Shown here one piece after another: positions 10,806 through 43,363 of a stretch of DNA of 64,000 nucleotides. The notes below the pieces were generated by a model. That model had not been told where the DNA came from. It ran no database searches and worked only from the letters and a program-made list of their open reading frames with translations. The first letter of the stretch is position 1. Each line of letters opens with the position of its first letter. The stretch comes from an uncultured virus (IMG/VR IMGVR_UViG_3300029309_000012) (Duplodnaviria; Heunggongvirae; Uroviricota; Caudoviricetes). The stretch lies in IMG/VR virus record IMGVR_UViG_3300029309_000012; one strand, 5' to 3'. Both the position numbers and the translations under genes were made by a program.

Positions 10806-10875
10806 AGCGGGGCCACTTTGGCGTGTGGGTGGCCGCTCCGGTTGTGTCAGGGCCGCGAACACGCGGGTAGCTGAC
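10806..10875 (-). promoter_or_regulatory. Tandem RNA hairpins with matching internal loops in the scaffold 5' leader
   Basis: GTCAG-CTAC-CCGCG-TGTT-CGCGG-CC-CTGAC and AGCGG-CCAC-CCAC-ACGCCAAA-GTGG-CC-CCGCT, immediately before the SD. Confidence 0.65.
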
Positions 10876-13199
10876 TAATTATTTACGAACCCTTCCGGGG
10901 CCGCATCGAGGGCATAATAGTCGTGCCCTCCAAAACTTGTAAAATATCTCATTTTAGGATTGTCTTCGAAATCTTTCGCTAAAGGAGCGTCAGGTTTCGT
11001 ATAAAACATTATGTCAGATGGAAGAGGTCGTTGACCCTCTGTTTCAGGATTCATTAAGTTTTCCGCTGCTGTGAACAGCTTGCTGACTGCATTAGGAACC
11101 CGGCCTTGAACAACCTCTCGTAAACGAGGTGTAATTTTTTTCGGCTCTAGTCCGTCGTACTGAAACATACGACTTCCAGTGCCTCGTGATGATCTTTGCT
11201 TCATTACAGATGCTAAATCGTTCACATTTTTAAAACTTGGACGATTAGTGTTTGCTCTATTAACAGCGGTTTGCATAACACCTGTCATAGACTCTACTGA
11301 GTCTGTAGATGCGGTCGTTTCAACTAAACCTAAAACAAACAGCCTTCCTCTATCATCCAAACTATCTATTAAGTTTTCAACATCCCCGCGTTGTCTTTTA
11401 CTTTTTAGGAACGTCTTAAAAACTTTACGAGTGCTGTCATCGATGGGTATGGACTGATCGAAAGGAATGTCTTCCCCTACGTCACCCCCGTCTGCGAACT
11501 TTTTTCCGTCGAGGAATCCACCCCCCGCTTTTTTCTGCCGACTCGCGACTTCTTTCTTACCACGGTTGTTAATTTTGCGGAGGCGGTCGTAGCCGATGAT
11601 TTTGGCTAACTCAGGAGGTACGACAACTTCGCCCTTCGAAAGAGCAACGTCTACTGTCCCTTCATATAGTTTACGATCTACACGGCCAATGTCAAGTCCT
11701 TTTTGTACAGCCACTTCGTAGGCTTTCATCAACATCTTTCGTATGTCTTCGCTACCGGCGATTTCTACGGCTGCTGCGTTGATGATAAATGTGTCCGGTG
11801 TGACCTTGCCGTTTTGATCGTCGGCTACGGTTTCACGCTCTGTAAAGTTCTCGGGTGGCCCCTCGACGAAACCGGGTTCGAAGGTGCCTTGAGGTGTGTC
11901 ACCCTCTGCCATACCGACGCGACCGCCTCTGCGGAATCCGAAGTCAGTAACGCCCTCATAGCTTGCCGCGTAATCATCAGCAAAGTCACTCATGCTGTAT
12001 TCTGTTGGGGATGTTTCTTGAGGATCACCCTCGTCCCTAAGACGATCCATCATACGATCTCGCGCGGCTTGACCTCTTTCAAATGCGGCATCTCTTTCTG
12101 CTTCTCGTATACGATTCGCTTCGCTGCGTGATTCAGTTACGGACGGCACGAAGTCATCCGGTTGCGATGTATCTACTTTAGTAGTCGGCGTGATGCCGTA
12201 CTTGTCTTTGAGAAAGTCAACTGCCGTACCCCGACGCCTGTCGAGTGCAGACGCATTTTGACCCGGACTTAAATTGCTCGTTTTGTGAAAGAAACCACCA
12301 TACGAGGAGTCGGTTTTCATAACGCCATCAACGTGCTGCTTGTAAGCTACGGCAGCATTTACAAAGTTCACGCCCTTGAGACCTGAGATATCCACTTCAG
12401 CCTGTCGCGCCATGCTACGAAACTCTTTTTCACGGAGAGCTTGTGCCTGAGATGCGGAAACCATCATGTGACCCGAATCATCGCGCTGTCCCGTATGCAC
12501 GGTACCAAACGCGTCCATGATTGCGCCCTCGATACTCGTAACACCGGAGAGTCCTGATGAACCGGGCATACCTTGCGGACCCGCACCCCTGCGTATAGAC
12601 GTGTTTTCTATCATCGTGCCCGGGATGAAACCTTTGCGTATTTCATCTGTGCGATACATATCACTCTGACTGAGGCCACCCAAGTTACCAGTAAAGATTT
12701 TACTACCCGGTGCGCGACTAACAGTCTGACCTTGAAACTTGAACATCGAACCCGCGTTGCCGCCGTACGAAGCGATTGACTCGGCGTTCTTGCGATGTTG
12801 TTTTCGTGCAAGTTGCCCAGCGCCGTACGCTAGAGCAGAGATAGGAAGTCCTGTAGCTACAGTGGCTACAGTACCGGGTACTCCTGCAGCCTGTTCGAGG
12901 TACCGACTAAATCCCTTGCCGTTCAAGTCGCTTTTCTCTTGAGTGTCAAAGTTACGAATGTACTCGTACGGGTCTTCCGTAGAGATTTGCTGGCCCGTAC
13001 CTACGATAGGAATCTGACCGAATACGTTTGCTACTTGTTCGTCACGTTGACCGACGGGTGTGAGGATGTTTGGACGTACTGGTTCGTCATCTTTTTCTTC
13101 ATCATCTACTTCAGGTGCCGCTTCTACACCGATGCCGGGAAAAGAGTAGTAATCGACAAATTGTTGTTGATATTGTTCAGGAGTTAGCGTTTTAGACAT
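10875..13199 (-). CDS. Virion protein with a C-terminal SleB/Hydrolase_2-like cell-wall hydrolase
   Basis: 774 aa; C-terminal E...GVMQTAVNR...Q...FQY...FY...FGGHDYY pattern resembles SleB; FRRGG and FADGG motifs. Confidence 0.6.
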   Translation of the reverse strand: MSKTLTPEQYQQQFVDYYSFPGIGVEAAPEVDDEEKDDEPVRPNILTPVGQRDEQVANVFGQIPIVGTGQQISTEDPYEYIRNFDTQEKSDLNGKGFSRYLEQAAGVPGTVATVATGLPISALAYGAGQLARKQHRKNAESIASYGGNAGSMFKFQGQTVSRAPGSKIFTGNLGGLSQSDMYRTDEIRKGFIPGTMIENTSIRRGAGPQGMPGSSGLSGVTSIEGAIMDAFGTVHTGQRDDSGHMMVSASQAQALREKEFRSMARQAEVDISGLKGVNFVNAAVAYKQHVDGVMKTDSSYGGFFHKTSNLSPGQNASALDRRRGTAVDFLKDKYGITPTTKVDTSQPDDFVPSVTESRSEANRIREAERDAAFERGQAARDRMMDRLRDEGDPQETSPTEYSMSDFADDYAASYEGVTDFGFRRGGRVGMAEGDTPQGTFEPGFVEGPPENFTERETVADDQNGKVTPDTFIINAAAVEIAGSEDIRKMLMKAYEVAVQKGLDIGRVDRKLYEGTVDVALSKGEVVVPPELAKIIGYDRLRKINNRGKKEVASRQKKAGGGFLDGKKFADGGDVGEDIPFDQSIPIDDSTRKVFKTFLKSKRQRGDVENLIDSLDDRGRLFVLGLVETTASTDSVESMTGVMQTAVNRANTNRPSFKNVNDLASVMKQRSSRGTGSRMFQYDGLEPKKITPRLREVVQGRVPNAVSKLFTAAENLMNPETEGQRPLPSDIMFYTKPDAPLAKDFEDNPKMRYFTSFGGHDYYALDAAPEGFVNN

Positions 13200-13416
13200 C
13201 GTTTCTCACCACCGCTTCGTAATTACTCTTCAACTTGAGGAGCATTTCCAGTAAAGCCAGCTTCCCCTGCGTCTGGCGCAACTCCGACTCCGATTGTGCC
13301 ATCACCACGGCCTGAATCGTCACTTCCCGGAGGTCCGCTAGGTACTCCTCCATTTGGGGCCATTCCGGGCTGTTGAGGAGCGCCGCCAGCTTCCGCGCTT
13401 GCTGCTTGTTGAGCAT
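13192..13416 (-). CDS. Small head-module protein overprinted on the portal 3' end
   Basis: 74 aa amphipathic helical protein (QGKLALLE), AGGGA RBS, stop overlaps the next gene's start. Confidence 0.6.
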   Translation of the reverse strand: MLNKQQARKLAALLNSPEWPQMEEYLADLREVTIQAVVMAQSESELRQTQGKLALLEMLLKLKSNYEAVVRNDV

Positions 13417-15337
13417 TCTGCATCATCCCTTGTAACATCTGTGCGTAGAGTTGTGCTTCGTTTACGTCGTTGACGAGGCTGTCCGGATCGATGTCCTGTG
13501 CGATTGCCAACTCTCGCATGAGGTTCGGCAGCTTCACAAACGGCGCAAGCATCGGATTAGCTATCGTCTGCAGTAACGAGGTGAGACGCTGGGTGCGTAC
13601 CTCTTTCTGCATAACTGCCGCTACGCCGCGTGGCTTAATCTCCAAGTCACCCTCGATGTCCTCCGATTCCATGTTGAACTGCATGTTCCACTGAAAGTAC
13701 GCTTCACCGAGTGGCTTGAGAAGATGATCGTCGATGTTCTTGATGACCGTCTTCATCGACAAACCCGCACTGCCCATCAGCATAGACAGTCCTGCTGCTG
13801 TGCGTCCGGTGCCGGTGACCCCTGTCTGACCGTGCATGATCGATGGTATGCCTGTCTCCTCGTCAGCAAGCTGGCGAGATATCTGATACATCTGTATGTT
13901 CTCGGGAGCAGTGTTCGGGAACTTAAGGCCGTTAATGGCCGTGCCCGTAACACCTGACTGACGACGGAATATCTTGCCGGGGAAGATGTCCATGTTCTGT
14001 CCCGGCACGAGGGATGCCTCGTCGACATCGAAGACGAGGTTGCCAGCGAGGGCGAGGTTGTCGATAGCCATACGAACGTGACCGTTCATAAGTAGTTGGG
14101 CATCTTCCATATTCTCTGCGACACCAACACCCCAAATCTGATAGGGATTGATCTCGAACGGAAACGCTTGATAGGGTATCCGCGCAGGAGTGAAAGGGTT
14201 GACTACGCAACGCAAGACTTCGTTGCCACACACCCACACGTTGACCTGTAGCTGGTCGAACTCCGACATGTTTTTAGCTTCCTCTAAGCCTACTTCGTCA
14301 GCGAAGTAAGCATCGAGGACGCCCCAATACTCAAGGACTTCGAAACGATTCTCTTGATAGTACGCTTCGGTTTCGTCCTCTCGGATCGTGTCTTCGTAAT
14401 ATTTGTCAGAATAGTTCGGCCCCTTCGCAAGGACATTTTGAATCGCTGTAGCGTCGAAGTGTGGCCGCATGATGAGACTACGTAGCTGTTGTCTATTCAT
14501 GCGGTGACGCTCGATGACGTACTCGCAATCCTCTATCGACGTAGCTGACGGGTCAGGGTGGAAATCCCAAAGCGAGACGGCCTCGATACGAGGCACAGTC
14601 TTCTCGTAGGGCATGTAGTCGCGCTCACCATCTTCACCGCGCTGCCACTTGTGGACACGCTTGAAGAAATTGAACGGCCCCTTGACGATGCCCGTGCCCA
14701 AGAGTGCGGACTCGAATATCGCTTTGCGGAATACGTTGACCGCATTCGTGTCGAGGAGTTGATCGTGGATCAGCTTCTCCATCCGACGGGCCTGTTCCTT
14801 TGCCGGTTCGAACTGTGGTTCACCGACTTTCGCTTTGCCCGGAACGAGCATATCCCCGAACTCTTTTCCGTACGATCCCAAGACGTGGGAGTCGGACGCC
14901 ATCAAACCTCCCGGAGCTATCATACGTCCATCACCGGGGAATCCGTACGGATCGCTGGGTTTGATTTCATCGACAGGCGTCCGCGCATGTGCGAACTCTG
15001 CGATGCCTTCCGGTACGGGAGTCGACTCGACAACCAGTGGAAACTTTTTGTTCGCAAACAGGATGTCGACGATCTGTCCGTACGCCGCAAGAACTTTCGT
15101 CTTTGTTATTTTTATGAATACCTTCGACCTTTCTGAGTCGCGGTATTGCGTTGTCGAATCGTAGATTCCTCGAAAGTTTTTGTACGCCTTAAGCCAACGC
15201 TGCTCGTACGAATATCTGCCGTTCTCTGCGTCTTTAAATTTAGACGTGACGTACCCGGCAAGGCCGGGCATCTGTTCTTCAGGGGACGGAATAGGTACTG
15301 CCGTGTCGTCTTGCGGCTCTAGGAAGTTTTCGGACAT
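13223..15337 (-). CDS. Portal protein (phage 1)
   Basis: 704 aa, KITKTKVLAAYGQI, FHPDPSA, FEVLEYWG, WGVGVAENM motifs; between terminase and scaffold. Confidence 0.9.
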   Translation of the reverse strand: MSENFLEPQDDTAVPIPSPEEQMPGLAGYVTSKFKDAENGRYSYEQRWLKAYKNFRGIYDSTTQYRDSERSKVFIKITKTKVLAAYGQIVDILFANKKFPLVVESTPVPEGIAEFAHARTPVDEIKPSDPYGFPGDGRMIAPGGLMASDSHVLGSYGKEFGDMLVPGKAKVGEPQFEPAKEQARRMEKLIHDQLLDTNAVNVFRKAIFESALLGTGIVKGPFNFFKRVHKWQRGEDGERDYMPYEKTVPRIEAVSLWDFHPDPSATSIEDCEYVIERHRMNRQQLRSLIMRPHFDATAIQNVLAKGPNYSDKYYEDTIREDETEAYYQENRFEVLEYWGVLDAYFADEVGLEEAKNMSEFDQLQVNVWVCGNEVLRCVVNPFTPARIPYQAFPFEINPYQIWGVGVAENMEDAQLLMNGHVRMAIDNLALAGNLVFDVDEASLVPGQNMDIFPGKIFRRQSGVTGTAINGLKFPNTAPENIQMYQISRQLADEETGIPSIMHGQTGVTGTGRTAAGLSMLMGSAGLSMKTVIKNIDDHLLKPLGEAYFQWNMQFNMESEDIEGDLEIKPRGVAAVMQKEVRTQRLTSLLQTIANPMLAPFVKLPNLMRELAIAQDIDPDSLVNDVNEAQLYAQMLQGMMQNAQQAASAEAGGAPQQPGMAPNGGVPSGPPGSDDSGRGDGTIGVGVAPDAGEAGFTGNAPQVEE

Positions 15338-15346
15338 GATAATCCT

Positions 15347-15583
15347 TTAGTCGTTGCCTTGTGGGCGGTCATCAGCCATGCTGAACAGAGAAGCCTCTAC
15401 AGTCGGCTTAGTCTGTTGCTTGGGCATGTCTTCAGTGAGGACATCGGTCTTCGCGCGAGTGTCGAATTCGAGACCCTCACGATAGAGCTTGTCCGCGCCC
15501 ATCTGATCGTCGATGGTTGTTGCATCGGCGTTCATGATGTACGCTTCACCAAAGTTGTAATTACCCGTGGTCTGGTTTGCCAT
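15347..15583 (-). CDS. Hypothetical acidic protein
   Basis: 78 aa with GGAGG RBS. Confidence 0.7.
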   Translation of the reverse strand: MANQTTGNYNFGEAYIMNADATTIDDQMGADKLYREGLEFDTRAKTDVLTEDMPKQQTKPTVEASLFSMADDRPQGND

Positions 15584-15594
15584 TTTTTCCTCCG

Positions 15595-17208
15595 TTAGGG
15601 TTGTTTTACTTTAGTATCTAAGAAACTTTCACGCGGAGCGTCTTTCATAGGATACATTGCAAACTCTGGTTTGATATATCCCAGAGCATCTGTTTGAGGG
15701 GCAACGTCTGTTCGCGGACCAAGACCTGATCCACCGGGAGTCGTAGCCCTCTGATCTTCACGAAACTCTCTATCACTGAATGCCATTCCGGGAGGTGCTA
15801 TTAGCTCTGACGCTCCTGCTGCAACACCCTTCATGCCAGCTACAAAGGGAGTGTCTCCCTGCCCTTCTGCTTTTCTGGAAGCTATGATTGCGCTTGATCC
15901 TACAGCGACAGGCAGTAGTCCTTTTAATATCTTGCCGCCTTTATCGGTTATCTTCGAGTAATCTATATTGAAACCTGCACTCTTGAGAGCGGCCTTTGTG
16001 TTGTCATCGAAGTCAGCAGGCGTGGTCGGTAGAGGCGCATCTGCTTCCGGGGCTACCTTAACAGGTGCTTCTTGTGCAGGAAGTTCAAAATATCCTTCAA
16101 ATCCGGGAGTTTGAGTAGTGATTCTTTCTGTTGGCATCGGGATGCGTTCCCCGATATCGAAACCTGCCTCCGTTGCAGCGTTTGCCCAGAAACTTGCAAA
16201 CATATTTGCGTTTGCCCTGTCAACCTCTCCGACCGCACCGGGAAAGGCTTGCTGGTACGTTGTCAGTTCCCCCGTGCTGCTTTTACCTGCCGACTTGAGG
16301 CTACGGCCTTGAAGGTAAGCGAGGCGGTCCTGATCTATACCAATCGACTGTCCGACTGTAGCGTGAACATTCCGAAGAAGTTGCGAACCCTTCTTACCAG
16401 TGAAACCTTCAGGCGCGAGAGTATCGAAATAACGATTTGTCGCTCTATCAAATGCGATATCTTTAACCTTGACCGTCTTTAGAAGGTCAGTCATGTCTTG
16501 TGAGGTTACGGGCTTCCCGTTAGCCTTGACAAAGAAAAATTCTTTACTGCCAGTAGTCAGGTTTTGTTGCAGGATGCTATCTGCAACTGGATTTAAAGGG
16601 ATATTGACAGCGCGTCCCTTTGCACCCTTCGCTTCTGATTCGATGTAGATAGCACCGCTGTCAGGCTTGTAAGATGTTACTTTGAGACCTGCCGCAGCGT
16701 TAGGACGTAAGCCTGTGTTTAAATTAAAAATAATTGCTTGTGCGATAGGACGAGTCTTCGGGTCGTCGAGATACTTTGCAACACCCGCGAACAACTGGCT
16801 CATCTTGGCCTTATCCGGGTTGATTGCAACTTCAGATACTGCCTTTGCAGGTTCGGAGCGTCCGAAGATTCGATTGTTGAGGTCCGTGTTCGGAGCCTTG
16901 TCCGGAAGGAGCTTATACTCTGGAGTGTCCGGACCATACAGACCCTTGAGCGTCAGGCCGACCTGCCGCAAATTTTGCATGGCAGTCTTAACGGTTGACG
17001 TGTCTTCACTATTCTTAAACGTACGAGAGAGAAGAGTGATTCCGTCCGCATCCTTTTCGAAAAGACGCATAGCAGAGCCGGGTTGATCAGCGATGTCTTT
17101 GAAGAACTGTACGGAGGATGTGACGAAAGCGTCCCCTCGCTTGTTCTTTGTAGCGTATGCCTGTGCGACCTCGCGTATTGTAGCTGTTTTTGGATCGAGT
17201 TCTGCCAT
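15595..17208 (-). CDS. Tyrosine recombinase with atypical active site and C-terminal extension
   Basis: NTGLRP (Arg I), AKGAKG (Lys), SQLLRNVH (Arg II), YLQGR, TTY (Tyr). Confidence 0.75.
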   Translation of the reverse strand: MAELDPKTATIREVAQAYATKNKRGDAFVTSSVQFFKDIADQPGSAMRLFEKDADGITLLSRTFKNSEDTSTVKTAMQNLRQVGLTLKGLYGPDTPEYKLLPDKAPNTDLNNRIFGRSEPAKAVSEVAINPDKAKMSQLFAGVAKYLDDPKTRPIAQAIIFNLNTGLRPNAAAGLKVTSYKPDSGAIYIESEAKGAKGRAVNIPLNPVADSILQQNLTTGSKEFFFVKANGKPVTSQDMTDLLKTVKVKDIAFDRATNRYFDTLAPEGFTGKKGSQLLRNVHATVGQSIGIDQDRLAYLQGRSLKSAGKSSTGELTTYQQAFPGAVGEVDRANANMFASFWANAATEAGFDIGERIPMPTERITTQTPGFEGYFELPAQEAPVKVAPEADAPLPTTPADFDDNTKAALKSAGFNIDYSKITDKGGKILKGLLPVAVGSSAIIASRKAEGQGDTPFVAGMKGVAAGASELIAPPGMAFSDREFREDQRATTPGGSGLGPRTDVAPQTDALGYIKPEFAMYPMKDAPRESFLDTKVKQP

Positions 17209-17211
17209 CGA

Positions 17212-18903
17212 TTAATATCCGAATGTCGCGTCGTGAACTTGGTGGACTTGATTCTTGATTGCGCCGAGTTGTTTGTGGATCGACGAGTATCCGCTCACTC
17301 GTGTCATCAACATGTAGCGTAAGGCGTCGTACGCGTGATCTTCTGACTTAGTGTCTACATCTTCACTGTTGCTTTTCGACAGGGGTATACCCGCAAGCTG
17401 TTTGATTATATTCTGACACGAAGAGAAGATACGTAGACGCGGTTCGTTCGTGTACGGATCGTCAGCGAGGCGACGATGTATTTCCATCTTCCCCTGAATA
17501 CGATTACGGTCGGATGGCGTCCATCGCACACCGACTCGCATCATCGTCTCTGCTATCGATGGACCGAAGCCTGTTTTATTCCAGCACGACGAGTCGAGGA
17601 CCGTATAGTACGGTAACGGATCGAGTTGTTCTGCTTCTAATATTCTATCGGCTAACTCTTCTGCTGTCAAGTGTTTAGCATATAGTTCGCGATAAATCCA
17701 GATATTATTGTCCCAGTCAATAGCCCCCCACAAAACGCACGACGGACTCGCATAGCCGTAGTCCGCCGCTCGTATGCGGGGCCAGTTGGTAGGAAGGTCA
17801 TAAGGCTCGACAACATGACGCACTCGTGAAAACTCGGGAAAGGCCGCTCCCTCCGCCACGTCCCAATCACCTTCGAGGAGTCGCCTTCGTTCGACATCCG
17901 GGAGCGACCTGAGCATAGCCTCGTATTGGCCGTCTGCCATCAGGTAGGGATTGTCGGTCAACCGCGCCGGTACGAATTTGCGAAGGAACAGCGGCTGACC
18001 TGCTTTCTCGTGACTGTCAGGCCACAGAAAGTCTTTTTTGGTTTCTATATCGAAGGCAGGAAAAGGCTTGTTTGGTTCGATGCCATCGATATAAGTCTTC
18101 TTGACCCACCAACCACCCACTCCTCCGGGGTTGGCTGTGCAGCGCATGTACAGGTGTTGCTGGAGTTCAGGATCAGTAGTACGAAGGCGAGAACGCAGGT
18201 AATCCCATACGTACGGTGTGGGATACTGTGTGATCTCATCGATGCCTATCCAGTTGAACGCCTGACCTTGAAAGCGCGTCACGTCTTTGTCTTTGTCGAG
18301 GTACGTAAACCACATCGTCGCCCCGGACGGAAAGACCCACGTCGACTTCGACTCTCGGAACTTCGCACCCGGAAATGCCTTCGGGTAGAGTTGACGAGAC
18401 TTGTCGATCAGTTCGGTTAGCTCGTCGAGAGTACGCCTAAGAAGAAGCCCACGATGATTAGGGTTGTGACAGTAGCGCAAAGGATCGGCCAAGAGAGCGA
18501 AAGATTTACCGCCCCCTGCTGCACCACCGTAGAGTACGTCTCGCTCACCCGCCGACAGAAATTCCGTTTGCGGACCCGTATTCGGTTGGAAGACGACTTC
18601 ACTTTCGCCGACAAGTTCCGATACTGGGTCTGGCAGATCAGCCACATCCCCAAGATCGATTGTGGCAGACTGATTGCCGACAAGAGCGTTTTCAACTTTG
18701 GTAGCCTGTTCTTCGAGCTTTCGGGCATAGCGGCGTTTATCCTCTGCTGCTTTGGTTGATTTTGCGGCACGACGCTTTGCAGCATTGACACGTTTCGTCG
18801 CTGCACGCCTTGCACGCTCCTTTGTAGACAGGTTATATGTGGCTTTTGGCGCATTAGGGTCTTTTTTTGGTCTGCCGCGCCTCTTGGGGGCTTCTTCAGC
18901 CAT
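17212..18903 (-). CDS. terL: Terminase large subunit
   Basis: Walker A GGAAGGGKS, Walker B WIGIDE, TANPGG, nuclease motifs AADYGY and DHAYDALRY. Confidence 0.95.
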   Translation of the reverse strand: MAEEAPKRRGRPKKDPNAPKATYNLSTKERARRAATKRVNAAKRRAAKSTKAAEDKRRYARKLEEQATKVENALVGNQSATIDLGDVADLPDPVSELVGESEVVFQPNTGPQTEFLSAGERDVLYGGAAGGGKSFALLADPLRYCHNPNHRGLLLRRTLDELTELIDKSRQLYPKAFPGAKFRESKSTWVFPSGATMWFTYLDKDKDVTRFQGQAFNWIGIDEITQYPTPYVWDYLRSRLRTTDPELQQHLYMRCTANPGGVGGWWVKKTYIDGIEPNKPFPAFDIETKKDFLWPDSHEKAGQPLFLRKFVPARLTDNPYLMADGQYEAMLRSLPDVERRRLLEGDWDVAEGAAFPEFSRVRHVVEPYDLPTNWPRIRAADYGYASPSCVLWGAIDWDNNIWIYRELYAKHLTAEELADRILEAEQLDPLPYYTVLDSSCWNKTGFGPSIAETMMRVGVRWTPSDRNRIQGKMEIHRRLADDPYTNEPRLRIFSSCQNIIKQLAGIPLSKSNSEDVDTKSEDHAYDALRYMLMTRVSGYSSIHKQLGAIKNQVHQVHDATFGY

Positions 18904-19300
18904 CGATGACTACTTCGTTCTTCGGTGGCAACAGAACTACACCGTGCATTGCCGTGACATTGTGGTTTATCTGCTCTGGAGCGCGTACGCCGACGCGTGT
19001 GAGGAGCGATTCTGCTGCCTTGAGACGTAAGTCGTCACCGCGTTCGGGGGCGGGATTGTCTATTGTCGTGACGAGGCGGTTAGCTGCTTTGATCGCATTG
19101 ACGGAAAGGATGTCTTTTGTGCGTTCGACGATCTCATCGGCTAGAGTTTTCTTGAGCCACTGGCTCGAACCCTTCGAATAACCCGCATCTACGGCTGCTT
19201 GAGTGACGTTTCCGCCGTTTTCGAAGAGATTATCGAGAAACGTACGCTGTTGGGGCGTCAATTCGCGTTCTTTTACGGGTTTTTGCGGAAGTAAATTCAT
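18896..19300 (-). CDS. terS: Terminase small subunit
   Basis: LTPQQRTF...GNVTQAAVDAGYS HTH; directly upstream of terL; start at 19300 just after a promoter. Confidence 0.85.
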   Translation of the reverse strand: MNLLPQKPVKERELTPQQRTFLDNLFENGGNVTQAAVDAGYSKGSSQWLKKTLADEIVERTKDILSVNAIKAANRLVTTIDNPAPERGDDLRLKAAESLLTRVGVRAPEQINHNVTAMHGVVLLPPKNEVVIDG

Positions 19301-19309
19301 AATATCACA

Positions 19310-19338
19310 AGTATAGGAGCTATTTTCGGTGTTGTCAA
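19310..19338 (-). promoter_or_regulatory. sigma70 promoter for the terS/late operon
   Basis: TTGACA-17-TATACT, ATG 9 nt downstream. Confidence 0.8.
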
Positions 19339-19347
19339 CTTTTTTTC

Positions 19348-19376
19348 TTGACAAATCCGGAATCTGACAGTACACT
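19348..19376 (+). promoter_or_regulatory. Divergent sigma70 promoter facing the non-coding region
   Basis: TTGACA-17-TACACT. Confidence 0.7.
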
Positions 19377-19844
19377 GCGTGTAAGACCCGCTGGGATATA
19401 CACCCGTATCTGCAAAAGTGGCCCAGTAAGGAACCGCCGGTACCCCCTTAAGGTGTACGTTTTGGTATTTCATTGCGGTGTACGTTTTTACGTATGCCTA
19501 TTACTCCAAAAAAGTAAAATTGCTGTCGGGATTGCATGCAAATGCGGGGGTACCCCGGGTGGCCCATGCGTGCCTACGCGCACGGCATATTTCTTTTAGT
19601 TTTTCTTGTCGCAGTATGCCCTCGCCGAGGCGGCCCCCACCCATCAAAACACACCCAGCGATTTATCCCGCCGGATATATAGCGGGTCACCCGTCGCGCA
19701 CGCGCACGCGTTGCCTAGTTTGTCATGCCGGTAATGGCCCGATGCCCTCAATAGATGCCAGAAAGCGCAGCAATACCCGAACAAGCAACCCGCCGAAATA
19801 TCCCGCCGATACAAGCCGCAAGCGATATATCCGACAACCGCCCA

Positions 19845-19875
19845 TAAAAAACCCCCAGCACTAAGGCCGGGGGAG
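19845..19875 (-). terminator. Intrinsic terminator of the early operon
   Basis: CCCCCGGC-cttagt-GCTGGGGG followed by TTTTTT on the minus strand. Confidence 0.8.
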
Positions 19876-19900
19876 TTGGGGAGGAAAGGGTTGTCGGTGA

Positions 19901-20125
19901 TTAATCGTCTTTGGTCACCTTGAAGTTGCCCACCTTGATAGAACGCGGCGATGAGCTACCAATGTAGTTAGTAAAACCCATCGAATCCATAAACGATTCT
20001 AAGCCCCGGATCTGGTTGTTGATCGCATCGAGATGACAACGAAGCACGCGGATTTCGTGCTCAGTAATCGCGAAAACATCGGCAGCTTCGCCAGTGGTCA
20101 GTTCGTTCTTAATCGTGCTTTGCAT
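19901..20125 (-). CDS. Hypothetical early protein
   Basis: Start MQSTIKNEL with GGAG RBS. Confidence 0.65.
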   Translation of the reverse strand: MQSTIKNELTTGEAADVFAITEHEIRVLRCHLDAINNQIRGLESFMDSMGFTNYIGSSSPRSIKVGNFKVTKDD

Positions 20126-20186
20126 CGCAAGTTCTCCGTTGGTAAATGAGGCCGGTAGAAGCACCGGCCCCAATGTTGTACGTTTT

Positions 20187-20594
20187 TTAGGCCGATCTGG
20201 CAAGCCGATATATTTTGTAGTACCCGCCCCGGTTGTTCCCGGTATTTTTCGCCTCTATGTCGTAACCCGCCTTTCGCAGATCACTCAGGTAGGAATATAC
20301 CGATCTCTTCTGGACACCCATATGCCCGGCAAGAGTAGGCACGGCGATGAACCCCTGCGACATCCAGCGAATAGCGCAGTAGTGGGTTGACGTCAGTTCG
20401 ACATCGTCGTTCGGCTGCAGGACCGATTCAGGCAGCGGCGGCTCTTCGATTTCAGCTTCCGCTATCTGTTCCGCAAACAACGTCCCGCGCAATTTGTTGA
20501 TTAGCTGGTCGCGTTCGTCCTGTCGAATAATCAGCTCAAACCGATCAGCCAGTTTCACAAATTGGTCGACAAGTTCTTTCGGTAGTTCTCTCAT
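20187..20594 (-). CDS. HTH DNA-binding protein
   Basis: C-terminal winged-HTH pattern VPTLAGHMGVQKRSVYSYLSDLRKAGYDI. Confidence 0.7.
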   Translation of the reverse strand: MRELPKELVDQFVKLADRFELIIRQDERDQLINKLRGTLFAEQIAEAEIEEPPLPESVLQPNDDVELTSTHYCAIRWMSQGFIAVPTLAGHMGVQKRSVYSYLSDLRKAGYDIEAKNTGNNRGGYYKIYRLARSA

Positions 20595-20695
20595 TTCTTT
20601 GTTCCCTTCTTTGTTTAGAATTGCATGATCGCCGTGATCAAGACGATTAAGAAGCACAAAACCGCCAAGCGGTACGCTATTAGAAGCGCTTCCAA

Positions 20696-21715
20696 TTACG
20701 CCACCTTTCGCTCGAGACCGCGCCAGAAGTCAGACTCGATCACCGTCCGCACTTCGTCAGCCCGTCTAGTCGCGACAAGTTCCCGGTTACTATTCCGGGC
20801 TTGGATATTCGGGAGATGGGTCGAGTAGTGTGTGAGGGCATTATAAGCAGCCCACAAGGTCGAACCCAGTTCGGGGGTCTCTTCCTTGAACCGCTCCAGC
20901 AGCCAATTTAGCTTTCGCTCATTAATCGCCAGATTCTCGTCTAGCTTGGCAGCCCGGGTATTCTTCCGGCATATGGTCGCCTTGAGCATCCGCAGCAGGT
21001 CGAATTCCGAGCAGTGGCTGTTCTGCCAGACTTCCATCTGGTCACGCTGGTTCGTCCACATGTCGAGGCCCACTTCCGCCTTTTTCATCATGGCGTCGAC
21101 ATCGATGTGCCCCTTGTGAATCTTCCTCTGGTGGTACGATTTCTGCCCACCAAACACTAACGAGTTGCGGCACAAGTCACGGTAGGCACCCGAAAACACC
21201 TGAAAGGCCCATGACAGGTCGACCGAATTAAAAATGTCCATGCGGCATTTCACAAGGTCAATCTGCCCGGTACGGGTCCGGGTTTCGGTGTTAAGGTCGT
21301 TGAACATCACCGTCCGATGCACCCGTTTACCGTTGCCATAGATACGATCAACAACCGACACGTTATCGGTTGGCAGCGGAGATTCCGCCAGCAGCGCGGC
21401 TTGTTTCCCAAAAAGGGTATCGTGCGGAATTAGGGCATAGTGCCGGGACACTGGCCGGACATCCAACAGCGCATCGGTCGCCCGATTATACAATGCCGAA
21501 TAACCGTCGACAGGTCGGTCGGTCATTATGTCAAATTCCATCCGATCATCGTAGGCACGAACAGGCGTGCTGGCAGTGAGCGGCACCCGCTCCACCTTTG
21601 CGTACTTGCTGTAAAGGCTCACATCAGACGGATTGCCATGTTTCGAATAAATCTCGTCACCGTGTTTCACGGCGTTATCGATAGCGGTGGTTTCTTGTTC
21701 GATTAGGTCAAGCAT
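20696..21715 (-). CDS. DUF932-like phage/plasmid protein
   Basis: VSRHYALIPH, FNSVDLS, YRDLCRNSL, H..H and TLWAAYNALTHYSTH motifs. Confidence 0.75.
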   Translation of the reverse strand: MLDLIEQETTAIDNAVKHGDEIYSKHGNPSDVSLYSKYAKVERVPLTASTPVRAYDDRMEFDIMTDRPVDGYSALYNRATDALLDVRPVSRHYALIPHDTLFGKQAALLAESPLPTDNVSVVDRIYGNGKRVHRTVMFNDLNTETRTRTGQIDLVKCRMDIFNSVDLSWAFQVFSGAYRDLCRNSLVFGGQKSYHQRKIHKGHIDVDAMMKKAEVGLDMWTNQRDQMEVWQNSHCSEFDLLRMLKATICRKNTRAAKLDENLAINERKLNWLLERFKEETPELGSTLWAAYNALTHYSTHLPNIQARNSNRELVATRRADEVRTVIESDFWRGLERKVA

Positions 21716-21928
21716 GATTAGTTCTCCTTTGTTCATGCGTTGTTGGTAGTTGAATCATGGCACACAATTTGCACCAGTTGAACCCCCGCGCCGAAAATTT
21801 TTTCGGGCGGTTGGACGCAGCCCCGCGACTCGCCGCGCCCGTCGATCAGCCCGTCGCCCCGCCCCCGAACGCGGCAGGAAGCTCCAGCCAATCCCCAAAA
21901 AACGTACATATTAGCGTCGGCCCGTTTG

Positions 21929-22546
21929 TCATGTGATGCCGTGCCGGTCGCGCCAGACGCGCCAAGTAATCGCTTGTAGTTGGTAGGGCATGAGGCCGAG
22001 CCGTTCCGCTGCTGCCTCATACGCAGCCTGAAGAGCGCGATACTCACGGACGCCGATGTTGGTCCGGTCGTCAGTGAGGCCGACGCGCTCACCATAGGCG
22101 ATGTTCCGGGCGTGGCCGTCTATGGTCACGTTGAACTCGCCCATGATATCCATAAAAAAGGACGTGATTTTTTGTCCCTTCAGCATACGTTTTGCGCCGT
22201 CGTAATCCGGACGCGCCGCCAAGATGTCCCATGCCTTCTGTTTCATCTTGTTATATGTCGAGACTTTCACCGCGTCGATGCCGTCACCATTCACAAAGGC
22301 ACCGATTAACGCGTCAGCATTTGTCAAGTTACGTGACCATCTGTTGTTAGGTGAAAGCGCGGCGATAACAGCAACCGCAATATAAACCGCAATGTCATAT
22401 TTTACCGCGATGAGATATGCCGCCTTCTGTGCGTTTTCATACCAGACAAGCCCCTCGTTATGCTGGACGCAGTCAGCATCACGGTAGACGCTGGTAATAT
22501 TGTAGATCATCTTTTCGTGATCGATAAGCGCGGCCTGTTTTGTCAT
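21929..22546 (-). CDS. Conserved phage protein (WY...AALSP...GQKITSF...VTIDGH...LQAITW family)
   Basis: 205 aa; motif pattern reminiscent of HhH-glycosylase-like phage proteins, function uncertain. Confidence 0.6.
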   Translation of the reverse strand: MTKQAALIDHEKMIYNITSVYRDADCVQHNEGLVWYENAQKAAYLIAVKYDIAVYIAVAVIAALSPNNRWSRNLTNADALIGAFVNGDGIDAVKVSTYNKMKQKAWDILAARPDYDGAKRMLKGQKITSFFMDIMGEFNVTIDGHARNIAYGERVGLTDDRTNIGVREYRALQAAYEAAAERLGLMPYQLQAITWRVWRDRHGIT

Positions 22547-22711
22547 GTGATTACCTTTCGTTAGAAAACGATGTCGGAAACCTACGGGTAATATCCGCCC
22601 CGGTCAAGCGGTTTTATTTTCTCGCCCTGTTCCCGCAGCCAGCACGACGGACAACGAAGCTGTCCGCCATCTTTGGTTAATGCCGGTTCGCCGCACACGT
22701 CGCACGGGTAG

Positions 22712-22936
22712 TTAGTAGACAGAGTAGTCTTTAGCGTCGGTCGATTTGTCTTTGGCGTCGTCCGGTTTGCCATGCTCTTGTGGTTCGTTTGCCACGATGT
22801 CACTGTCTAGCCACTCCGCGCGTAATTTATTATAGATATCGATGCAAGATTCGCCATGTTTTGCCGTCCACTCTTCGCGGGTCATGCACAAGGCGTCCTC
22901 TTCCATTTCGATTAGCCAATCACTTACTCTGCCCAT
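22712..22936 (-). CDS. Hypothetical early protein
   Basis: 74 aa, MGRVSDWLIEMEEDA start, coupled to the upstream gene. Confidence 0.55.
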   Translation of the reverse strand: MGRVSDWLIEMEEDALCMTREEWTAKHGESCIDIYNKLRAEWLDSDIVANEPQEHGKPDDAKDKSTDAKDYSVY

Positions 22937-23252
22937 CTCGTGTACCTACCTTTCTTTCGTAGCGTTCGATAGCTGCTATAGTGTAGTCGACCTGCGTATA
23001 TATTTTGTCGAGGTCTTCTGACATGATTTCAATATATTCCATCGCTTCCTTTGTCTGTGTCAAGAGGGCGCGGAGACCTGCAGTAGTGACAGCTTTGGCG
23101 CGGAACATCTCGCCACTGCCGTCACACTGTTCACACTCACCCATCACGCCGACAAGATCACCACCACGGATAGGATCGGGCCTAGCCTCTTCGTACTCGA
23201 CGACGCCCTCTCCGCCACAGTCCCAGCATTCACAGCGTTCTACCTTTGCCAT
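22920..23252 (-). CDS. DnaJ-type zinc-finger protein
   Basis: CWDCGGEG and CEQCDGSG (CxxCxGxG twice). Confidence 0.7.
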   Translation of the reverse strand: MAKVERCECWDCGGEGVVEYEEARPDPIRGGDLVGVMGECEQCDGSGEMFRAKAVTTAGLRALLTQTKEAMEYIEIMSEDLDKIYTQVDYTIAAIERYERKVGTRDGQSK

Positions 23253-23392
23253 CAACCAAACCTTTCGATAACACCGACGACGGCGTGGTACGCCATCCAA
23301 ACCAGAAAGCCAAGCACACACGCAAACAGAAGCATCTCTATGCCGTCGTGTGTGAGGTAGTAGTCCCTCACCCTGTGCCACAGCTTACTCAT
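23252..23392 (-). CDS. Small membrane protein
   Basis: MSKLWHRV... with one TM segment, overlapping neighbours. Confidence 0.55.
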   Translation of the reverse strand: MSKLWHRVRDYYLTHDGIEMLLFACVLGFLVWMAYHAVVGVIERFG

Positions 23393-23666
23393 GTTCACCC
23401 CCGTTACCTCGTCCCAAGCCACCGAAATACTGCGGCTTACGTTTTGCCGTCTCGAAGACACCCAGCGTGATAAAGATACCAGCAAGCAGGATTGCGTGAA
23501 CAAGCGCACTCACACCGAACACTACAATCGATCCTACCCACGACGAAAATATTATACACCACATCCACGCAAGAACTTGCATGATCATATGCCGAGTGTT
23601 GAGGTCGGGGATGTTGGACAGCGGGTTCTTTGCGCTGTCCATCACCAGTTGATAGAGCCTAGTCAT
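23385..23666 (-). CDS. Membrane protein
   Basis: NPLSNIPD...QVLAWMWCIIFS, two TM segments, GRGNGGEHE end. Confidence 0.65.
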   Translation of the reverse strand: MTRLYQLVMDSAKNPLSNIPDLNTRHMIMQVLAWMWCIIFSSWVGSIVVFGVSALVHAILLAGIFITLGVFETAKRKPQYFGGLGRGNGGEHE

Positions 23667-23847
23667 ACTCTGTTTCCCATCGTTTCTTTGCCAAGTCGAC
23701 AGCGGCGTTGTGTAAGTCTTCTTCGCTTCGAAATAGACAAGCGGAATGATGCCCATACATCTTGTATGGCTTAAAGCGGGAAAGCAACTCTTCGATGGCC
23801 TCGTCGTACAAGCGTTCAAGGGTCATCTCGTTCTGATGATTACTCAC
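23659..23847 (-). CDS. Hypothetical protein
   Basis: 62 aa coupled ORF. Confidence 0.55.
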   Translation of the reverse strand: MSNHQNEMTLERLYDEAIEELLSRFKPYKMYGHHSACLFRSEEDLHNAAVDLAKKRWETEYD

Positions 23848-24079
23848 TCTTCAACTCCGCATCCTCTGCGTACACCCAGTCAGCATACCAAAAACTATTG
23901 CCATCCTCGTTTTTTCTTGGCTGGAAATTGCCAACTTGATGAAGAATGCAGATGGCTTCTTCGATGTCACGTATTTGCGATAGAGTTATATCCCGACAGT
24001 CATCGATATAGCTGATGGTGTTACGCAGTTTATTGTGTGCAGCGAGCATGTCTTTTCTTTGCTTCGTTGTGATTTCCAT
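23840..24079 (-). CDS. Hypothetical protein
   Basis: 79 aa with AAGGAGA RBS. Confidence 0.65.
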   Translation of the reverse strand: MEITTKQRKDMLAAHNKLRNTISYIDDCRDITLSQIRDIEEAICILHQVGNFQPRKNEDGNSFWYADWVYAEDAELKSE

Positions 24080-24147
24080 GTGTCAATCTCCTTTGTTTGA
24101 CGTTGTGCTAATTACCTATGCATATAACGTACACCGTCGTCAAGCAC

Positions 24148-24181
24148 AAAAAACGGGGCCAGTCGATAAAGACCAGCCCCG
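24148..24181 (-). terminator. Intrinsic terminator
   Basis: CGGGGCTGGTC-tttatc-GACTGGCCCCG followed by TTTTTT. Confidence 0.75.
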
Positions 24182-24212
24182 CTTACTTTTGCTACCAACA
24201 ACAAAAGGAGAA

Positions 24213-24476
24213 CTACCACACCTCGTATGGTATGCAGAGTTTTAACACCACTCTTTCGTACCTGTCAAGCCACCATTTGCACTCGCGTTCAGATTTCGAT
24301 ACGAACACCGTAGACCACTTGGGGTAGTCGATATTGTGTCGTGACTTCACGCCGTTGCGTGGCGTCTCACCTAAACGTACAGACGACAGGGGTGCCACCA
24401 CCTCCCACCGTCCTGCCGACTCGACGACTTCAGGAACGAGACGCTCCCCCTTACGATCACGGAATGTTCTTTTCAT
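24213..24476 (-). CDS. Hypothetical protein
   Basis: 87 aa coupled ORF. Confidence 0.55.
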   Translation of the reverse strand: MKRTFRDRKGERLVPEVVESAGRWEVVAPLSSVRLGETPRNGVKSRHNIDYPKWSTVFVSKSERECKWWLDRYERVVLKLCIPYEVW

Positions 24477-24660
24477 CAGAGTAATCCTCTACTCGAATAC
24501 ACAGTGCTTCCTGATTTACAGGCATCACTTCCCAAAATTCTACTGTCGATGCGAAGTAACACTCTGCCATCGTGTTGTACACGCCGATGCGTTCGAAATC
24601 AAATTCTTCGCTACTGAAGGCTGTTACTGCCAACAGCACCCACGCTACTGTCGTTTCCAT
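24457..24660 (-). CDS. Small two-Cys protein with hydrophobic N-terminus
   Basis: 67 aa with GAGGAG RBS. Confidence 0.6.
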   Translation of the reverse strand: METTVAWVLLAVTAFSSEEFDFERIGVYNTMAECYFASTVEFWEVMPVNQEALCIRVEDYSDEKNIP

Positions 24661-24844
24661 TCGTCTCCTCTATCGCGTCGATGTAGATGTCAATCGATTC
24701 GCGTATGACATCAGCCACAGACACCTGTTCTCTGCTGGTTTCCTGTAGCATCTTTGCGTGTCTGTCGAGTACGTCATACTGTTTGACGGTCATCAACAAC
24801 TTGTATTGTTTAGTAGGTTCATCGAGTTTTGCTGGTCGTGCCAT
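24611..24844 (-). CDS. Ribbon-helix-helix transcription regulator
   Basis: MARP...YKLLM strand, helix, SVADVIRESIDIY helix. Confidence 0.65.
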   Translation of the reverse strand: MARPAKLDEPTKQYKLLMTVKQYDVLDRHAKMLQETSREQVSVADVIRESIDIYIDAIEETNGNDSSVGAVGSNSLQ

Positions 24845-25000
24845 CCTTCATCTCTTTTCGTTGTTCCTTTTCAAGTTTCTTTCTTCGTTTGTTAGGTACA
24901 ACCTTGTTACGATATTTATCATCCCTTAAGGATTTAGCTATCGGATTAATTTTATTAATCTTAGTCATAATAGGGGTATCCCTAAAGGGGTATTATACAT

Positions 25001-25071
25001 AGGTTAGTTAGCGTAGCTGGGCTTGTCAAACAAAAAATGCTCTTGACCGAGTTACCGATGTCCATTACTGT
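25001..25071. promoter_or_regulatory. Back-to-back divergent sigma70 promoters (early leftward, replication rightward)
   Basis: Minus strand TTGACA-17-TAACCT (25029-25001); plus strand TTGACC-17-TACTGT (25043-25071). Confidence 0.65.
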
Positions 25072-25078
25072 CGCCGAC

Positions 25079-25882
25079 ATGAAATCACCAACGTGGCTCA
25101 AATCATACGTCGAAGGACTCGACATCGTACCGAATACGAAGTACCGCTCCGACTGCCCAGTCTGCGGTAAACGTAATACGTTCTCTGTGACGGACAATGG
25201 CTTACAACGGCTATGGTATTGTTTTCATGCGGATTGTAACGTGTCGGGTCGAACGGGAGTGACGTTGTCGAAAAATACGTCGAAGGATATATTCACACCG
25301 AAACAACAACCGCTTTCCATTACCAATACTTTTTCTGAATTCGAGATGCCGGACACGTTCGTATCGGTCGGTCGAAGCCTCGACGCAGAACTCTATCTGC
25401 GTAGGGTGGGGGCGTACGATGCGTACCTCGCGGGGGCCGTAGACTTACGCTACGATGTTCGAATGAACCGTGTGGTATTCCTGATACGTGATGGAAAGAA
25501 AATTGTAGATGCAGCGGGGAGAGCTTTAGATGGACGTGGCCCTAAGTGGTATCGTTATGGATCAAGTAGAAGTCCTTTTGTTTCTGGCACAAGTTCATCT
25601 GTTGCCTGTGTTGTGGAAGATTGTGCCTCTGCTTGTAGTGTGTGCAGTGTTGTCTCGGGCGTGGCCCTCTTAGGAACTAATCTTCTTGCGGAACACATCG
25701 ATGTATTGAAACAATATGATCGTGTGTTCGTAGCCCTCGACAAAGACGCTACTGACAAGGCGATTGCTATGGTACGAACGCTTCACTCGCATGTTCCGAC
25801 ACGCCTGATGGTTTTACGAACGGACTTGAAGAACATGGAAAGGACACAACGACATGAGTTCATACGATCCTACCTCGATTGA
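25079..25882 (+). CDS. DNA primase (zinc finger plus TOPRIM)
   Basis: CPVC...CFHADC zinc finger; VVED and ALDKD TOPRIM motifs. Confidence 0.9.
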   Translation: MKSPTWLKSYVEGLDIVPNTKYRSDCPVCGKRNTFSVTDNGLQRLWYCFHADCNVSGRTGVTLSKNTSKDIFTPKQQPLSITNTFSEFEMPDTFVSVGRSLDAELYLRRVGAYDAYLAGAVDLRYDVRMNRVVFLIRDGKKIVDAAGRALDGRGPKWYRYGSSRSPFVSGTSSSVACVVEDCASACSVCSVVSGVALLGTNLLAEHIDVLKQYDRVFVALDKDATDKAIAMVRTLHSHVPTRLMVLRTDLKNMERTQRHEFIRSYLD

Positions 25883-31082: not shown

Positions 31083-31462
31083 TGGCGTACATTTTTATAC
31101 GAGAGTACGACTTAGACCTTCTCGAACTCAACAAAGAGATGTATCACATGTACATCGAATCTCACAAGGGTGTGGGAGGAGATCGTCGAACTGTGTTTTT
31201 ACGTCAGCACGAAAGAGGATTACCCTTGACGTTACGTGAAAACTTCACGAAGGATGGGGTGATATCCTCTGATACCGAAAAGAGAGATATCACTACTGTC
31301 GAAAATGAGATACAAAATATAAGCAGGTTAGCCAACGCAGGAGTCAATGTATGTATCCCTCTGAACTCTTTGATAAACGAATGTTGCTTGATAGAAGCAC
31401 GGTCACCAAAGGTGTCGGTGTACGTAATGAAACGCCTAGAGTCCGCCGGAATGCGTCTATGA
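31082..31462 (+). CDS. Hypothetical protein
   Basis: Coupled ORF within the replication operon. Confidence 0.65.
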   Translation: MAYIFIREYDLDLLELNKEMYHMYIESHKGVGGDRRTVFLRQHERGLPLTLRENFTKDGVISSDTEKRDITTVENEIQNISRLANAGVNVCIPLNSLINECCLIEARSPKVSVYVMKRLESAGMRL

Positions 31463-31839
31463 AACAAAGCTCGGCCAAGAAGGCCGGGTTTCGTTCGAAC
31501 TTCGAATTGAACTTGGCACGTGCCCTCGCTGACCGGGGCATCATGTACGAATATGAGTCAACAAAGCTGACCTATCTTCCTAAACCGCGCACCTATACAC
31601 CTGACTTCTTTATACCCTCGACGAATATATACATCGAAGCGAAGGGGCATTTCGACAAGGGTGATCGAGTGAAGATGCTTCTCGTAAAGGAACAACATCC
31701 TGAACTCGATATACGTTTTGTGTTTCTGAATTCTCGTAATAAAATTTATAAGGGATCGAAAACGACCTACGCAGACTGGGCTACAAAGAACAAGTTCGAC
31801 TGGGCGGAGGGATCGATACCAGAGGAGTGGTACAAATGA
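31459..31839 (+). CDS. Endonuclease I / Holliday junction resolvase (T7 gp3-like)
   Basis: FRSNFE, YTPDF, IEAKG, HPELDIRFVF, TTYADWA. Confidence 0.9.
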   Translation: MKQSSAKKAGFRSNFELNLARALADRGIMYEYESTKLTYLPKPRTYTPDFFIPSTNIYIEAKGHFDKGDRVKMLLVKEQHPELDIRFVFLNSRNKIYKGSKTTYADWATKNKFDWAEGSIPEEWYK

Positions 31840-42808: not shown

Positions 42809-42811
42809 CGC

Positions 42812-43363
42812 TTACGGTTCCTTCTTCGTCATAGTCATAAAGTTTTCCTCGCGAGGAGGTTGAGGTGCCTCTCCACGACGGATACCCTCGTTAATCGTCT
42901 CGCTGACGTATGAGAACATAGCCGGATTGTTTTCCCGCATCATCGAGAAAAACGTACGATCATCCATTTCGTCTTCGGTCAGGGCGTCGTCATTCTCGAA
43001 CAAACGATAAGGTATGTTTTCATCCTCTGCTACGGACGCGATATACATAGCCAGCGGACCCTTGATCAGCAAGCCTACGTCTGGGGAGAAGCCGCCCTCC
43101 TGAAACGCCTGAAAAAGATATCCTTCGACGAGTGCCTCAACAGACGCGCCCACCATGAGGAGCTTCATCATTTCTTCGCGCACGTGTGGTACCTCTAAGG
43201 AGTCCACCGCCTTGCGGAGTACGGATTCCGGATCAACGTCTTCCTGTGGCTTTCCCCACGGCCAACGCTCATTGTCAGACGTGAGACCGTAGCCCGGAGG
43301 TGACATGGAAAACGGGTCTTTAGCTTCGATAGTGCCGCGTTGTGGGAGCATTTCTTCAGCCAT
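42812..43363 (-). CDS. Virion-associated hypothetical protein
   Basis: 183 aa, PPG..LT...WPWGKP motif. Confidence 0.65.
   Translation of the reverse strand: MAEEMLPQRGTIEAKDPFSMSPPGYGLTSDNERWPWGKPQEDVDPESVLRKAVDSLEVPHVREEMMKLLMVGASVEALVEGYLFQAFQEGGFSPDVGLLIKGPLAMYIASVAEDENIPYRLFENDDALTEDEMDDRTFFSMMRENNPAMFSYVSETINEGIRRGEAPQPPREENFMTMTKKEP

Follow-up and report, generated by a model that had tools for sequence, protein, structure and literature searches.

A tyrosine recombinase-like protein encoded in the head operon of uncultured marine podophages is a candidate virion cargo

The stretch of DNA analysed here, 64,000 nucleotides from an uncultured tailed virus (IMG/VR record IMGVR_UViG_3300029309_000012; Caudoviricetes) and hereafter called the window, carries between its terL and portal genes a recombinase-like gene, REC (15595..17208, minus strand), which encodes 537 amino acids followed by a stop codon. 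The open reading frame (ORF) has weak integrase matches in Pfam and PHROGs, and its modelled fold matches those of known recombinases. As judged from sequence, REC is probably an active, divergent tyrosine recombinase, and its gene is modular, the folded core being exchanged among phages as a cassette and the disordered tail being exchanged independently. We tentatively favor an explanation to which we give less than an even chance, namely that REC is a late-made recombinase that is packaged into the head and reaches the new cell together with the DNA. Its main and serious rival is that REC is an unpackaged, ordinary lysogeny integrase.

Fold and active-site residues of REC

An AlphaFold model of REC, built with 29 relatives, divides the protein into three parts, all encoded on the minus strand. 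Residues 1–125 (16834..17208) form a helical N-terminal domain that resembles a core-binding domain in VIA alignments and is modelled with predicted local distance difference test (pLDDT) values of about 70–85, as found over residues 1–100. Residues 126–375 (16084..16833) make up the catalytic domain, within which residues 130–300 and 320–370 are modelled with high confidence. Residues 376–537 (15598..16083) form an Ala/Pro/Gly-rich tail that its composition and pLDDT values below 50 mark as disordered.

The top Foldseek matches to the model are tyrosine recombinases throughout, and the protelomerase TelA ranks below the integrases with E values of only 0.04–0.08. Values from VIA alignment were highest for archaeal XerA (14.7; model residues 7–345), followed by Brujita Int (13.4), the staphylococcal integrase 3nkh (13.3; root-mean-square deviation [rmsd] of 2.5 Å over 153 residues), the lambda Int core (13.0; rmsd of 2.8 Å; model residues 8–308), Tn1549 Int (12.7; model residues 8–308), SSV1 Int (11.8), and Cre and Flp (about 10 each). 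Topoisomerase I reached 9.0 with its catalytic part only. Because the alignments with XerA, Tn1549 Int, lambda Int, XerH, and Cre start at residue 7–9 and extend through the catalytic domain, REC is best described as a core-binding domain joined to a catalytic domain.

Sequence comparisons agree with this fold at lower resolution. REC matches PF00589 over residues 149–248 only, at 24.8 bits versus a gathering cut-off of 27.1, and matches the integrase family phrog_216 at 1.8e-7; among 48 distant family members, 17 match PF00589 at E ≤ 0.01 and four exceed the cut-off. The single REC protein found no match by sequence in the PDB. A profile of 51 family members matches the solved integrases 3nkh (1.1e-6) and Tn1549 Int (3e-4) over the first half of the catalytic domain. 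Aligned by hhalign with single sequences of lambda Int (E 0.73) and Cre (E 0.34), the profile gave no significant match, the lambda alignment pairing TGLR with TGQR.

The catalytic motifs read NTGLR(168)P, GAK(197)GR, QLLR(279), LQGR(302), and TTY(318)Q, and thus all the residues quoted in an initial annotation of the sequence (two Arg, a Lys, and a Tyr, with QLLR and LQGR boxes) are present. The residues are encoded on the minus strand at 16705–16707 (R168), 16618–16620 (K197), 16372–16374 (R279), 16303–16305 (R302), and 16255–16257 (Y318). R168 aligns with the TGxR arginine (Arg I) of XerH, 3nkh, and Tn1549 Int, and K197 aligns with the hairpin lysine of XerH (E 0.085) and is invariant among the 29 close relatives. 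Across the 51 family sequences, which diverge down to 18% identity, G166, R168, F226, R279, and Y318 are invariant, and G301 and R302 are conserved in at least 90%.

Two canonical positions differ. The HxxR box is incomplete, with an invariant Arg (R279) and Gln (Q276) in place of the first His, a position taken by Q, A, or P among close relatives and by Y among the distant "YDLRR" members; and the His/Trp II position is an Arg, R302 of LQGR. Active archaeal integrases with KxxR and YxxR boxes are described in the accessible part of PMC8371274, so loss of the first His is not an argument against catalysis, and this residue appears to be dispensable in the REC family. The initial annotation had overstated a likeness of LQGR to a QGR in SSV1-type integrases, the same partial source giving only KxxR for the SSV1 type and YxxR for the pNOB8 type. 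Because three arginines and the tyrosine are conserved, it can be argued that the phosphoryl-transfer chemistry has been retained.

These residues also bear on whether the fold serves a task other than recombination, as a DNA-binding regulator, a relaxing enzyme like type IB topoisomerases, or a fast-evolving counter-defence cargo. The lost first His would suit such a use, as would the extreme diversity of the core in near-identical backbones (see below), which resembles arms-race loci such as those of the T4 internal proteins (accessible part of PMC9026906). We consider a use of this kind quite unlikely, given two invariant Arg and an invariant Tyr with a third Arg in at least 90% of the 51 sequences, and given an N-terminal domain that matches the core-binding domains of recombinases rather than the N-domains of topoisomerase IB.

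REC therefore resembles XerA, Tn1549 Int, the lambda Int core, and XerH in its two-domain fold and in the presence of Arg I, the hairpin Lys, the HxxR Arg, and a putative nucleophilic Tyr. It is unlike them in the first-His and His/Trp II positions, in its 160-residue disordered tail with a terminal motif, in scoring below the Pfam cut-off, and in lying in a head operon with no att region.

The family is small and isolated. Its profile retrieves only 104 proteins at E ≤ 0.001 among 1.84 billion cluster representatives and does not retrieve ordinary integrases. A word-indexed search yielded 247 proteins, all metagenomic and mostly marine. Four core types had no tblastn match in 50,697 GenBank phage records, and two scans with two core types, which used a few exact peptide patterns and detect close relatives only, found none in 185,579 prokaryote species genomes. 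The terL product is nearest to those of the HMO-2011-type marine podophages CRP-2, HMO-2011, and HTVC115P (52–57% identity), and positions 1–49475 of the window are colinear, in circularly permuted order, with the complete 54-kb genome of an uncultured relative (G002). We regard the REC family as a distinct, uncultured group of tyrosine recombinases whose architecture and genomic setting are new. In a literature search that left subscription journals largely uncovered, we found no published account of a recombinase encoded between terL and portal or present in the virions of such phages.

Position in the head operon and the search for a target site

The initial annotation had placed REC between terL and portal, 3 nt after the terL stop codon, and both ORF coordinates and family matches bear this out. 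The ATG of REC is at 17208, and the stop codon of terL, which lies directly upstream (17212..18903, minus strand; PF03237, and phrog_979 at 9.7e-61), occupies 17212–17214. On the other side are an acidic, conserved ORF of 78 amino acids (15347..15583, minus strand), found with 39–100% identity in every locus that reaches that far and with no family match in Pfam or PHROGs, and then portal (13223..15337, minus strand; PF23899, 9.3e-30). The intergenic gaps along these four genes are 3, 11, and 9 nt.

This order is conserved. Among 45 IMG/VR loci with the core type of the window, 34 show terL, REC, the 78-amino acid gene, and portal in succession, and the other 11 end at a contig edge with the expected neighbor on the visible side; no other arrangement, and hence no exception, was encountered. 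All nine loci of three other core types have terL upstream of REC, and seven of them extend to portal. Altogether, REC is carried by 54 of 54 related loci, with no empty site. In HMO-2011 and CRP-2, terL adjoins portal directly, without REC or the 78-amino acid gene. Their absence there, together with cassette-like exchange of the core, is what would be expected if REC and the 78-amino acid gene were a selfish mobile cassette inserted between terL and portal with no role for the phage. Nevertheless, we hold this to be very improbable, since no related locus has an empty site, neither terminal repeats nor flanking non-coding DNA are present, and the 78-amino acid gene and the tail go with the backbone rather than with the core.

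The fixed place of REC in a head operon without terminators argues for its late synthesis, and the sequence suggests that it is transcribed late, together with terS, terL, and portal. A terminator-like hairpin (19852..19873, minus strand) closes the upstream unit, and no minus-strand terminator-like site was found between this hairpin (19873–19852) and position 13000, hence none from the promoter-like site upstream of terS to portal. That site (19310..19338, minus strand) reads TTGACA-17-TATACT with 11 of 12 matches, a kind of site that counts no higher than in shuffled sequence. It falls within the listed ORF of terS (18896..19375, minus strand; PF03592), and terS relatives align only from about residue 25; the listed GTG start is probably too far upstream, the real start probably lying near 19300. 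Contigs from RNA libraries that are identical to the window bridge terL and REC (17174–17634 and 17175–17457; two runs, one study) and also REC, the 78-amino acid gene, and portal (14829–15928 and 15315–15690; two runs, one study), with the caveat that these libraries may contain DNA and that their samples may be the source of the window DNA. One RNA run, X13, has no contigs over most of 19472–26000, a region covered by DNA runs, and the uncovered part proves nothing. No joints or loose ends inside REC are listed in the assembled contigs. The initial annotation had described REC as far from the regulatory region, which does not hold, as a helix-turn-helix gene, a Q-like gene, and a 525-bp intergenic region lie 2.2–6 kb upstream on the same strand.

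Upstream of terS, the intergenic region (19376–19900) contains two 25-nt direct repeats ending in GGTGTACGTTTT (19439–19488) and a second repeat pair (19653–19673 and 19788–19808), and short islands at ~19348–19408 and ~19500–19600 are kept in distant relatives. These repeats and islands are possible promoter or packaging signals.

Signs of a recombination target were sought throughout this part of the genome. The gaps of 3 and 11 nt beside REC are flanked by coding sequence on both sides and leave no non-coding DNA, so there is no adjacent attP. No lox- or att-like inverted repeat stands out in 15000–20300, where direct repeats do occur upstream of terS. A scan of 15300–20000 for tRNA-like or other RNA families returned three chance-level rows only, and no tRNA genes were found in the window. 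Among 27 distinct core genes, synonymous codon identity is flat along the gene (mean of 0.52, maximum of 0.72 over 12 codons), with no stretch of suppressed synonymous change that would indicate an embedded site. The terS-upstream region shows no co-variation with core type by blastn, at 76% identity between phages with different cores and 79% between those with the same core.

This last comparison bears on the possibility that REC is a late, unpackaged recombinase that acts on replicated phage DNA by resolving multimers or branched forms, or that sets genome ends with terminase. A cis site for such an enzyme should co-vary with the core. In addition, headful or concatemer packaging needs no monomerization, the phage has its own junction-resolving endonuclease (31351–31839; phrog_945, phrog_9019), and cultured relatives package without REC. 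The place of REC in the terS/terL operon, 3 nt after terL, and its conserved catalytic residues would agree with such a role, which we judge improbable; for the specific proposal in the initial annotation, a concatemer resolvase working with terminase, nothing was found in its favor.

The same observations must be set against the serious rival introduced above, in which REC is an ordinary integrase in a permissive slot that has replaced the canonical integrase of HMO-2011-type phages, its different cores targeting different attB sites. The accessible parts of PMC9038755 and PMC6918029 place that canonical integrase upstream of the replication module; none was found in the window, and in two near-complete relatives the sole Phage_integrase-like match is the REC counterpart. 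The conserved catalytic residues are as expected for an integrase, the archaeal KxxR and YxxR enzymes (PMC8371274, in the part accessible) also work without the first His, and CRP-3, a relative with a canonical integrase, can integrate according to the accessible text of PMC6918029. Evidence to the contrary comes from the lack of adjacent non-coding DNA for attP, the absence of a tRNA-like fragment, the synonymous-site data that reveal no site inside the core gene, the late operon in which REC sits, and the failure to find an integrated copy of two core types in the 185,579 species genomes by scans that detect close relatives only. On balance, we think this explanation somewhat unlikely. The statement in the initial annotation that REC is not an ordinary lysogeny integrase is partly supported by a recombinase fold in a conserved late position, with no adjacent attP and no close relative found in the prokaryote genomes, and lysogeny is still a serious rival.

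Comparison with well-studied enzymes points to the same peculiarities. Unlike archaeal integrases of the SSV1 and pNOB8 types, REC shows no sign of an att site inside its gene and no split copies in genomes scanned for close relatives, comes from a bacterial tailed phage, and has an extra tail. P1 Cre has an adjacent lox site, has no tail, and is not known to be packaged, whereas no lox-like site was found for REC.

Separate exchange of core and tail, and a shared C-terminal motif

Phages whose terL and portal are 78–93% identical to those of the window can carry REC cores that are only 24–32% identical. Nucleotide homology with four such loci (L066, L068, L051, and L064) covers terL and breaks 8–27 nt into REC, near 17200 (~17182 for L064). 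It restarts at window position 16033, which is residue 392 at the start of the tail, for L066; in the 78-amino acid gene for L068 and L051; and only in the portal gene for L064. Accordingly, identity with L066 is 30/125 in the core-binding domain and 81/250 in the catalytic domain (111/375 for the core) versus 130/146 in the tail, and the reverse is seen with locus L006, at 118/125 and 232/250 (350/375 for the core) versus 53/146.

A core could be delimited in 170 of the 176 full-length proteins, a set whose sampling is biased to the window type. At 50% identity, these 170 form 35 core clusters and 42 tail clusters in 55 combinations; 11 core types occur with at least two tail types each, and nine tail types with at least two core types each. 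The 78-amino acid gene and the tail track the backbone and not the core. For an ordinary lysogeny integrase, cassette-like diversity of this extent is typical of specificity modules and is well explained. On the other hand, the flanks stay conserved when the core changes, and no known integrase has a comparable long tail that finishes in a conserved motif.

A further rearrangement is seen at the other end of the gene. In 39 of the 170 members, an in-frame N-terminal extension of at least 80 residues is present, of at least two unrelated kinds (e.g., L006:5590–6000). It is inserted precisely at the start codon, with the first few bases of the gene repeated on both sides, and has no Pfam family match.

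The tail of REC contains 14.8% Ala, 10.5% Pro, and 9.9% Gly. The initial annotation had noted a P/A/G-rich tail with a hydrophobic G/A segment, and both are there; the hydrophobicity of the segment is modest, and because its 19-residue Kyte–Doolittle maximum is only 1.39, it is no clear membrane helix. The tail fell into no informative cluster in the ESM Atlas. Tails cannot be aligned across types, and most have like endings, such as DQGFLSR and DDNFLTMSP, that of the window being RESFLDTKVKQP with the motif E527-S-F-L-D531 (15616..15630, minus strand). The pattern [GNS]F[LIMV] occurs within the last eight residues of 134 of the 176 full-length members, versus 91 of 6393 15-residue windows elsewhere in the same proteins (1.4%), counts that are not independent because the sequences are related.

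Similar endings are found in other proteins of these phages. A 183-amino acid protein (42812..43363, minus strand) ends in EENFMTM, and its C-terminal motif is kept in 116 of 120 homologues. Its gene lies directly upstream of genes for 677 and 1607 amino acids, and the three genes in a row (35952–43363, minus strand) have no family match. Their sizes and order resemble those of gp14, gp15, and gp16, the internal core proteins of T7. The large protein encoded after portal, which in the window has 774 amino acids (10875..13199, minus strand), is a candidate ejected protein with an internal GGGFL and a SleB-like lytic transglycosylase domain at its end. Domains of this kind are typical of ejected virion proteins. 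Its homologues end in the motif in 11 of 16 distinct forms (e.g., ARGGFLA). We also considered that the motif is re-created after domain accretion, which is ruled out by its absence from the terminus of 25 of 32 homologues with the SleB-like end. Pfam searches with the 78-, 74-, and 183-amino acid proteins and with two parts of the 774-amino acid protein gave nothing credible.

By analogy, a disordered linker with a terminal peptide that is common to two likely internal proteins and is inherited apart from the core is the layout of a capsid cargo. The T4 capsid-targeting sequences described in the accessible part of PMC9026906 similarly combine a short terminal peptide and a flexible linker with unrelated cargos that vary among related phages, and encapsulin cargo-loading peptides, as far as the partly accessible source goes, are likewise short terminal peptides common to unrelated cargos. 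The T4 signal differs in being N-terminal and cleaved off, whereas the motif in REC is C-terminal. Co-folding of tail residues 470–537 with the major capsid protein and a putative scaffold gave a score of 0.01, which speaks neither for nor against binding.

Portal too has an Ala/Gly/Pro-rich C-terminal tail (13223–13300, minus strand). It bears a GF[TS]GN motif in all relatives, and this motif also occurs in HMO-2011 and CRP-2, both of which are without REC.

A possible virion-borne recombinase and its meaning

A packaged and injected recombinase is the explanation we favor because the catalytic residues are kept, the gene has a late place in the head operon, and the layout of the tail is like that of a cargo. 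Support for loading into the virion is circumstantial and consists of the disordered tail with its motif, the independent swapping of core and tail, and the terminator-free operon shared with terL and portal. In the proposed course of events, REC would be made as a late gene with terS, terL, and portal, and the acidic-x-F-hydrophobic peptide at the end of its ~160-residue disordered tail would dock it to the assembling head, in a manner akin to a T4 capsid-targeting sequence or an encapsulin cargo-loading peptide. A few copies would be packaged and then ejected along with the DNA. The pre-made enzyme could then act on the incoming genome in the new cell ahead of phage gene expression, either by circularizing it through its terminally redundant ends, in the way that Cre acts on P1, or by inserting it at a host site. 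Retroviruses, by analogy, carry their integrase in the particle. The wider proposition, that abundant marine podophages package a tyrosine recombinase by means of a C-terminal peptide shared with ejection proteins and inject it, with the core as an exchanged specificity cassette, is more doubtful.

Several findings weigh against the favored explanation. The segment with Y318, the putative nucleophile, is modelled with low confidence, pLDDT values being below 50 for residues 304–317. Phage phiM6 holds seven accessory genes at its terL–portal junction, a precedent that equally suits an unpackaged integrase; because this junction is a variable slot, position is weak evidence for a head function. 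No target site was found near REC, inside it, or co-varying with core type, and the strong divergence of the cores is exactly the pattern of integrases with different attB sites. Among the 32 homologues with the SleB-like end, only seven have the terminal motif, and these seven share with the window an identical end domain. In the 774-amino acid protein of the window, the GFV at the terminus is not conserved, and therefore the motif need not be C-terminal in that protein. Moreover, the terminal motif might just as well mark the protein for degradation or bind a host factor.

The remainder of the window is composite. From 49537 it carries a T7-like structural module that is absent from G002 and that comprises a second portal gene (62351–63892), a second capsid gene, tail tube genes, and internal proteins. 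The G+C content of this module is higher, at 0.55–0.57, and its best match is the Methylophilales phage MEP301 (58.7%). The join of the 49476–64000 part may reflect either a chimeric assembly or a natural join. Within the T7-like internal-protein block, a 712-amino acid protein (52005–54143, minus strand) has a Zeta_toxin kinase domain (PF06414, 1.9e-21, residues 390–555). No relatives of P0172 were found in viral contigs.

HMO-2011-type phages are among the most abundant marine viruses. If REC is packaged, it would be, to our knowledge, the first natural case of a tailed phage delivering a site-specific recombinase as a virion protein; we found no such report in the literature. If the terminal motif is a loading signal, it would provide a compact, naturally occurring tag with which enzymes could be directed into podovirus capsids, and the many interchangeable cores would constitute a stock of recombinases, presumably with different site specificities. 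A published survey (PMC9038755) reports, in its accessible part, no identifiable lysogeny-related genes in HMO-2011-type subgroups IV to X. The presence of a conserved recombinase within the head operon would alter our view of the life cycle in this clade.

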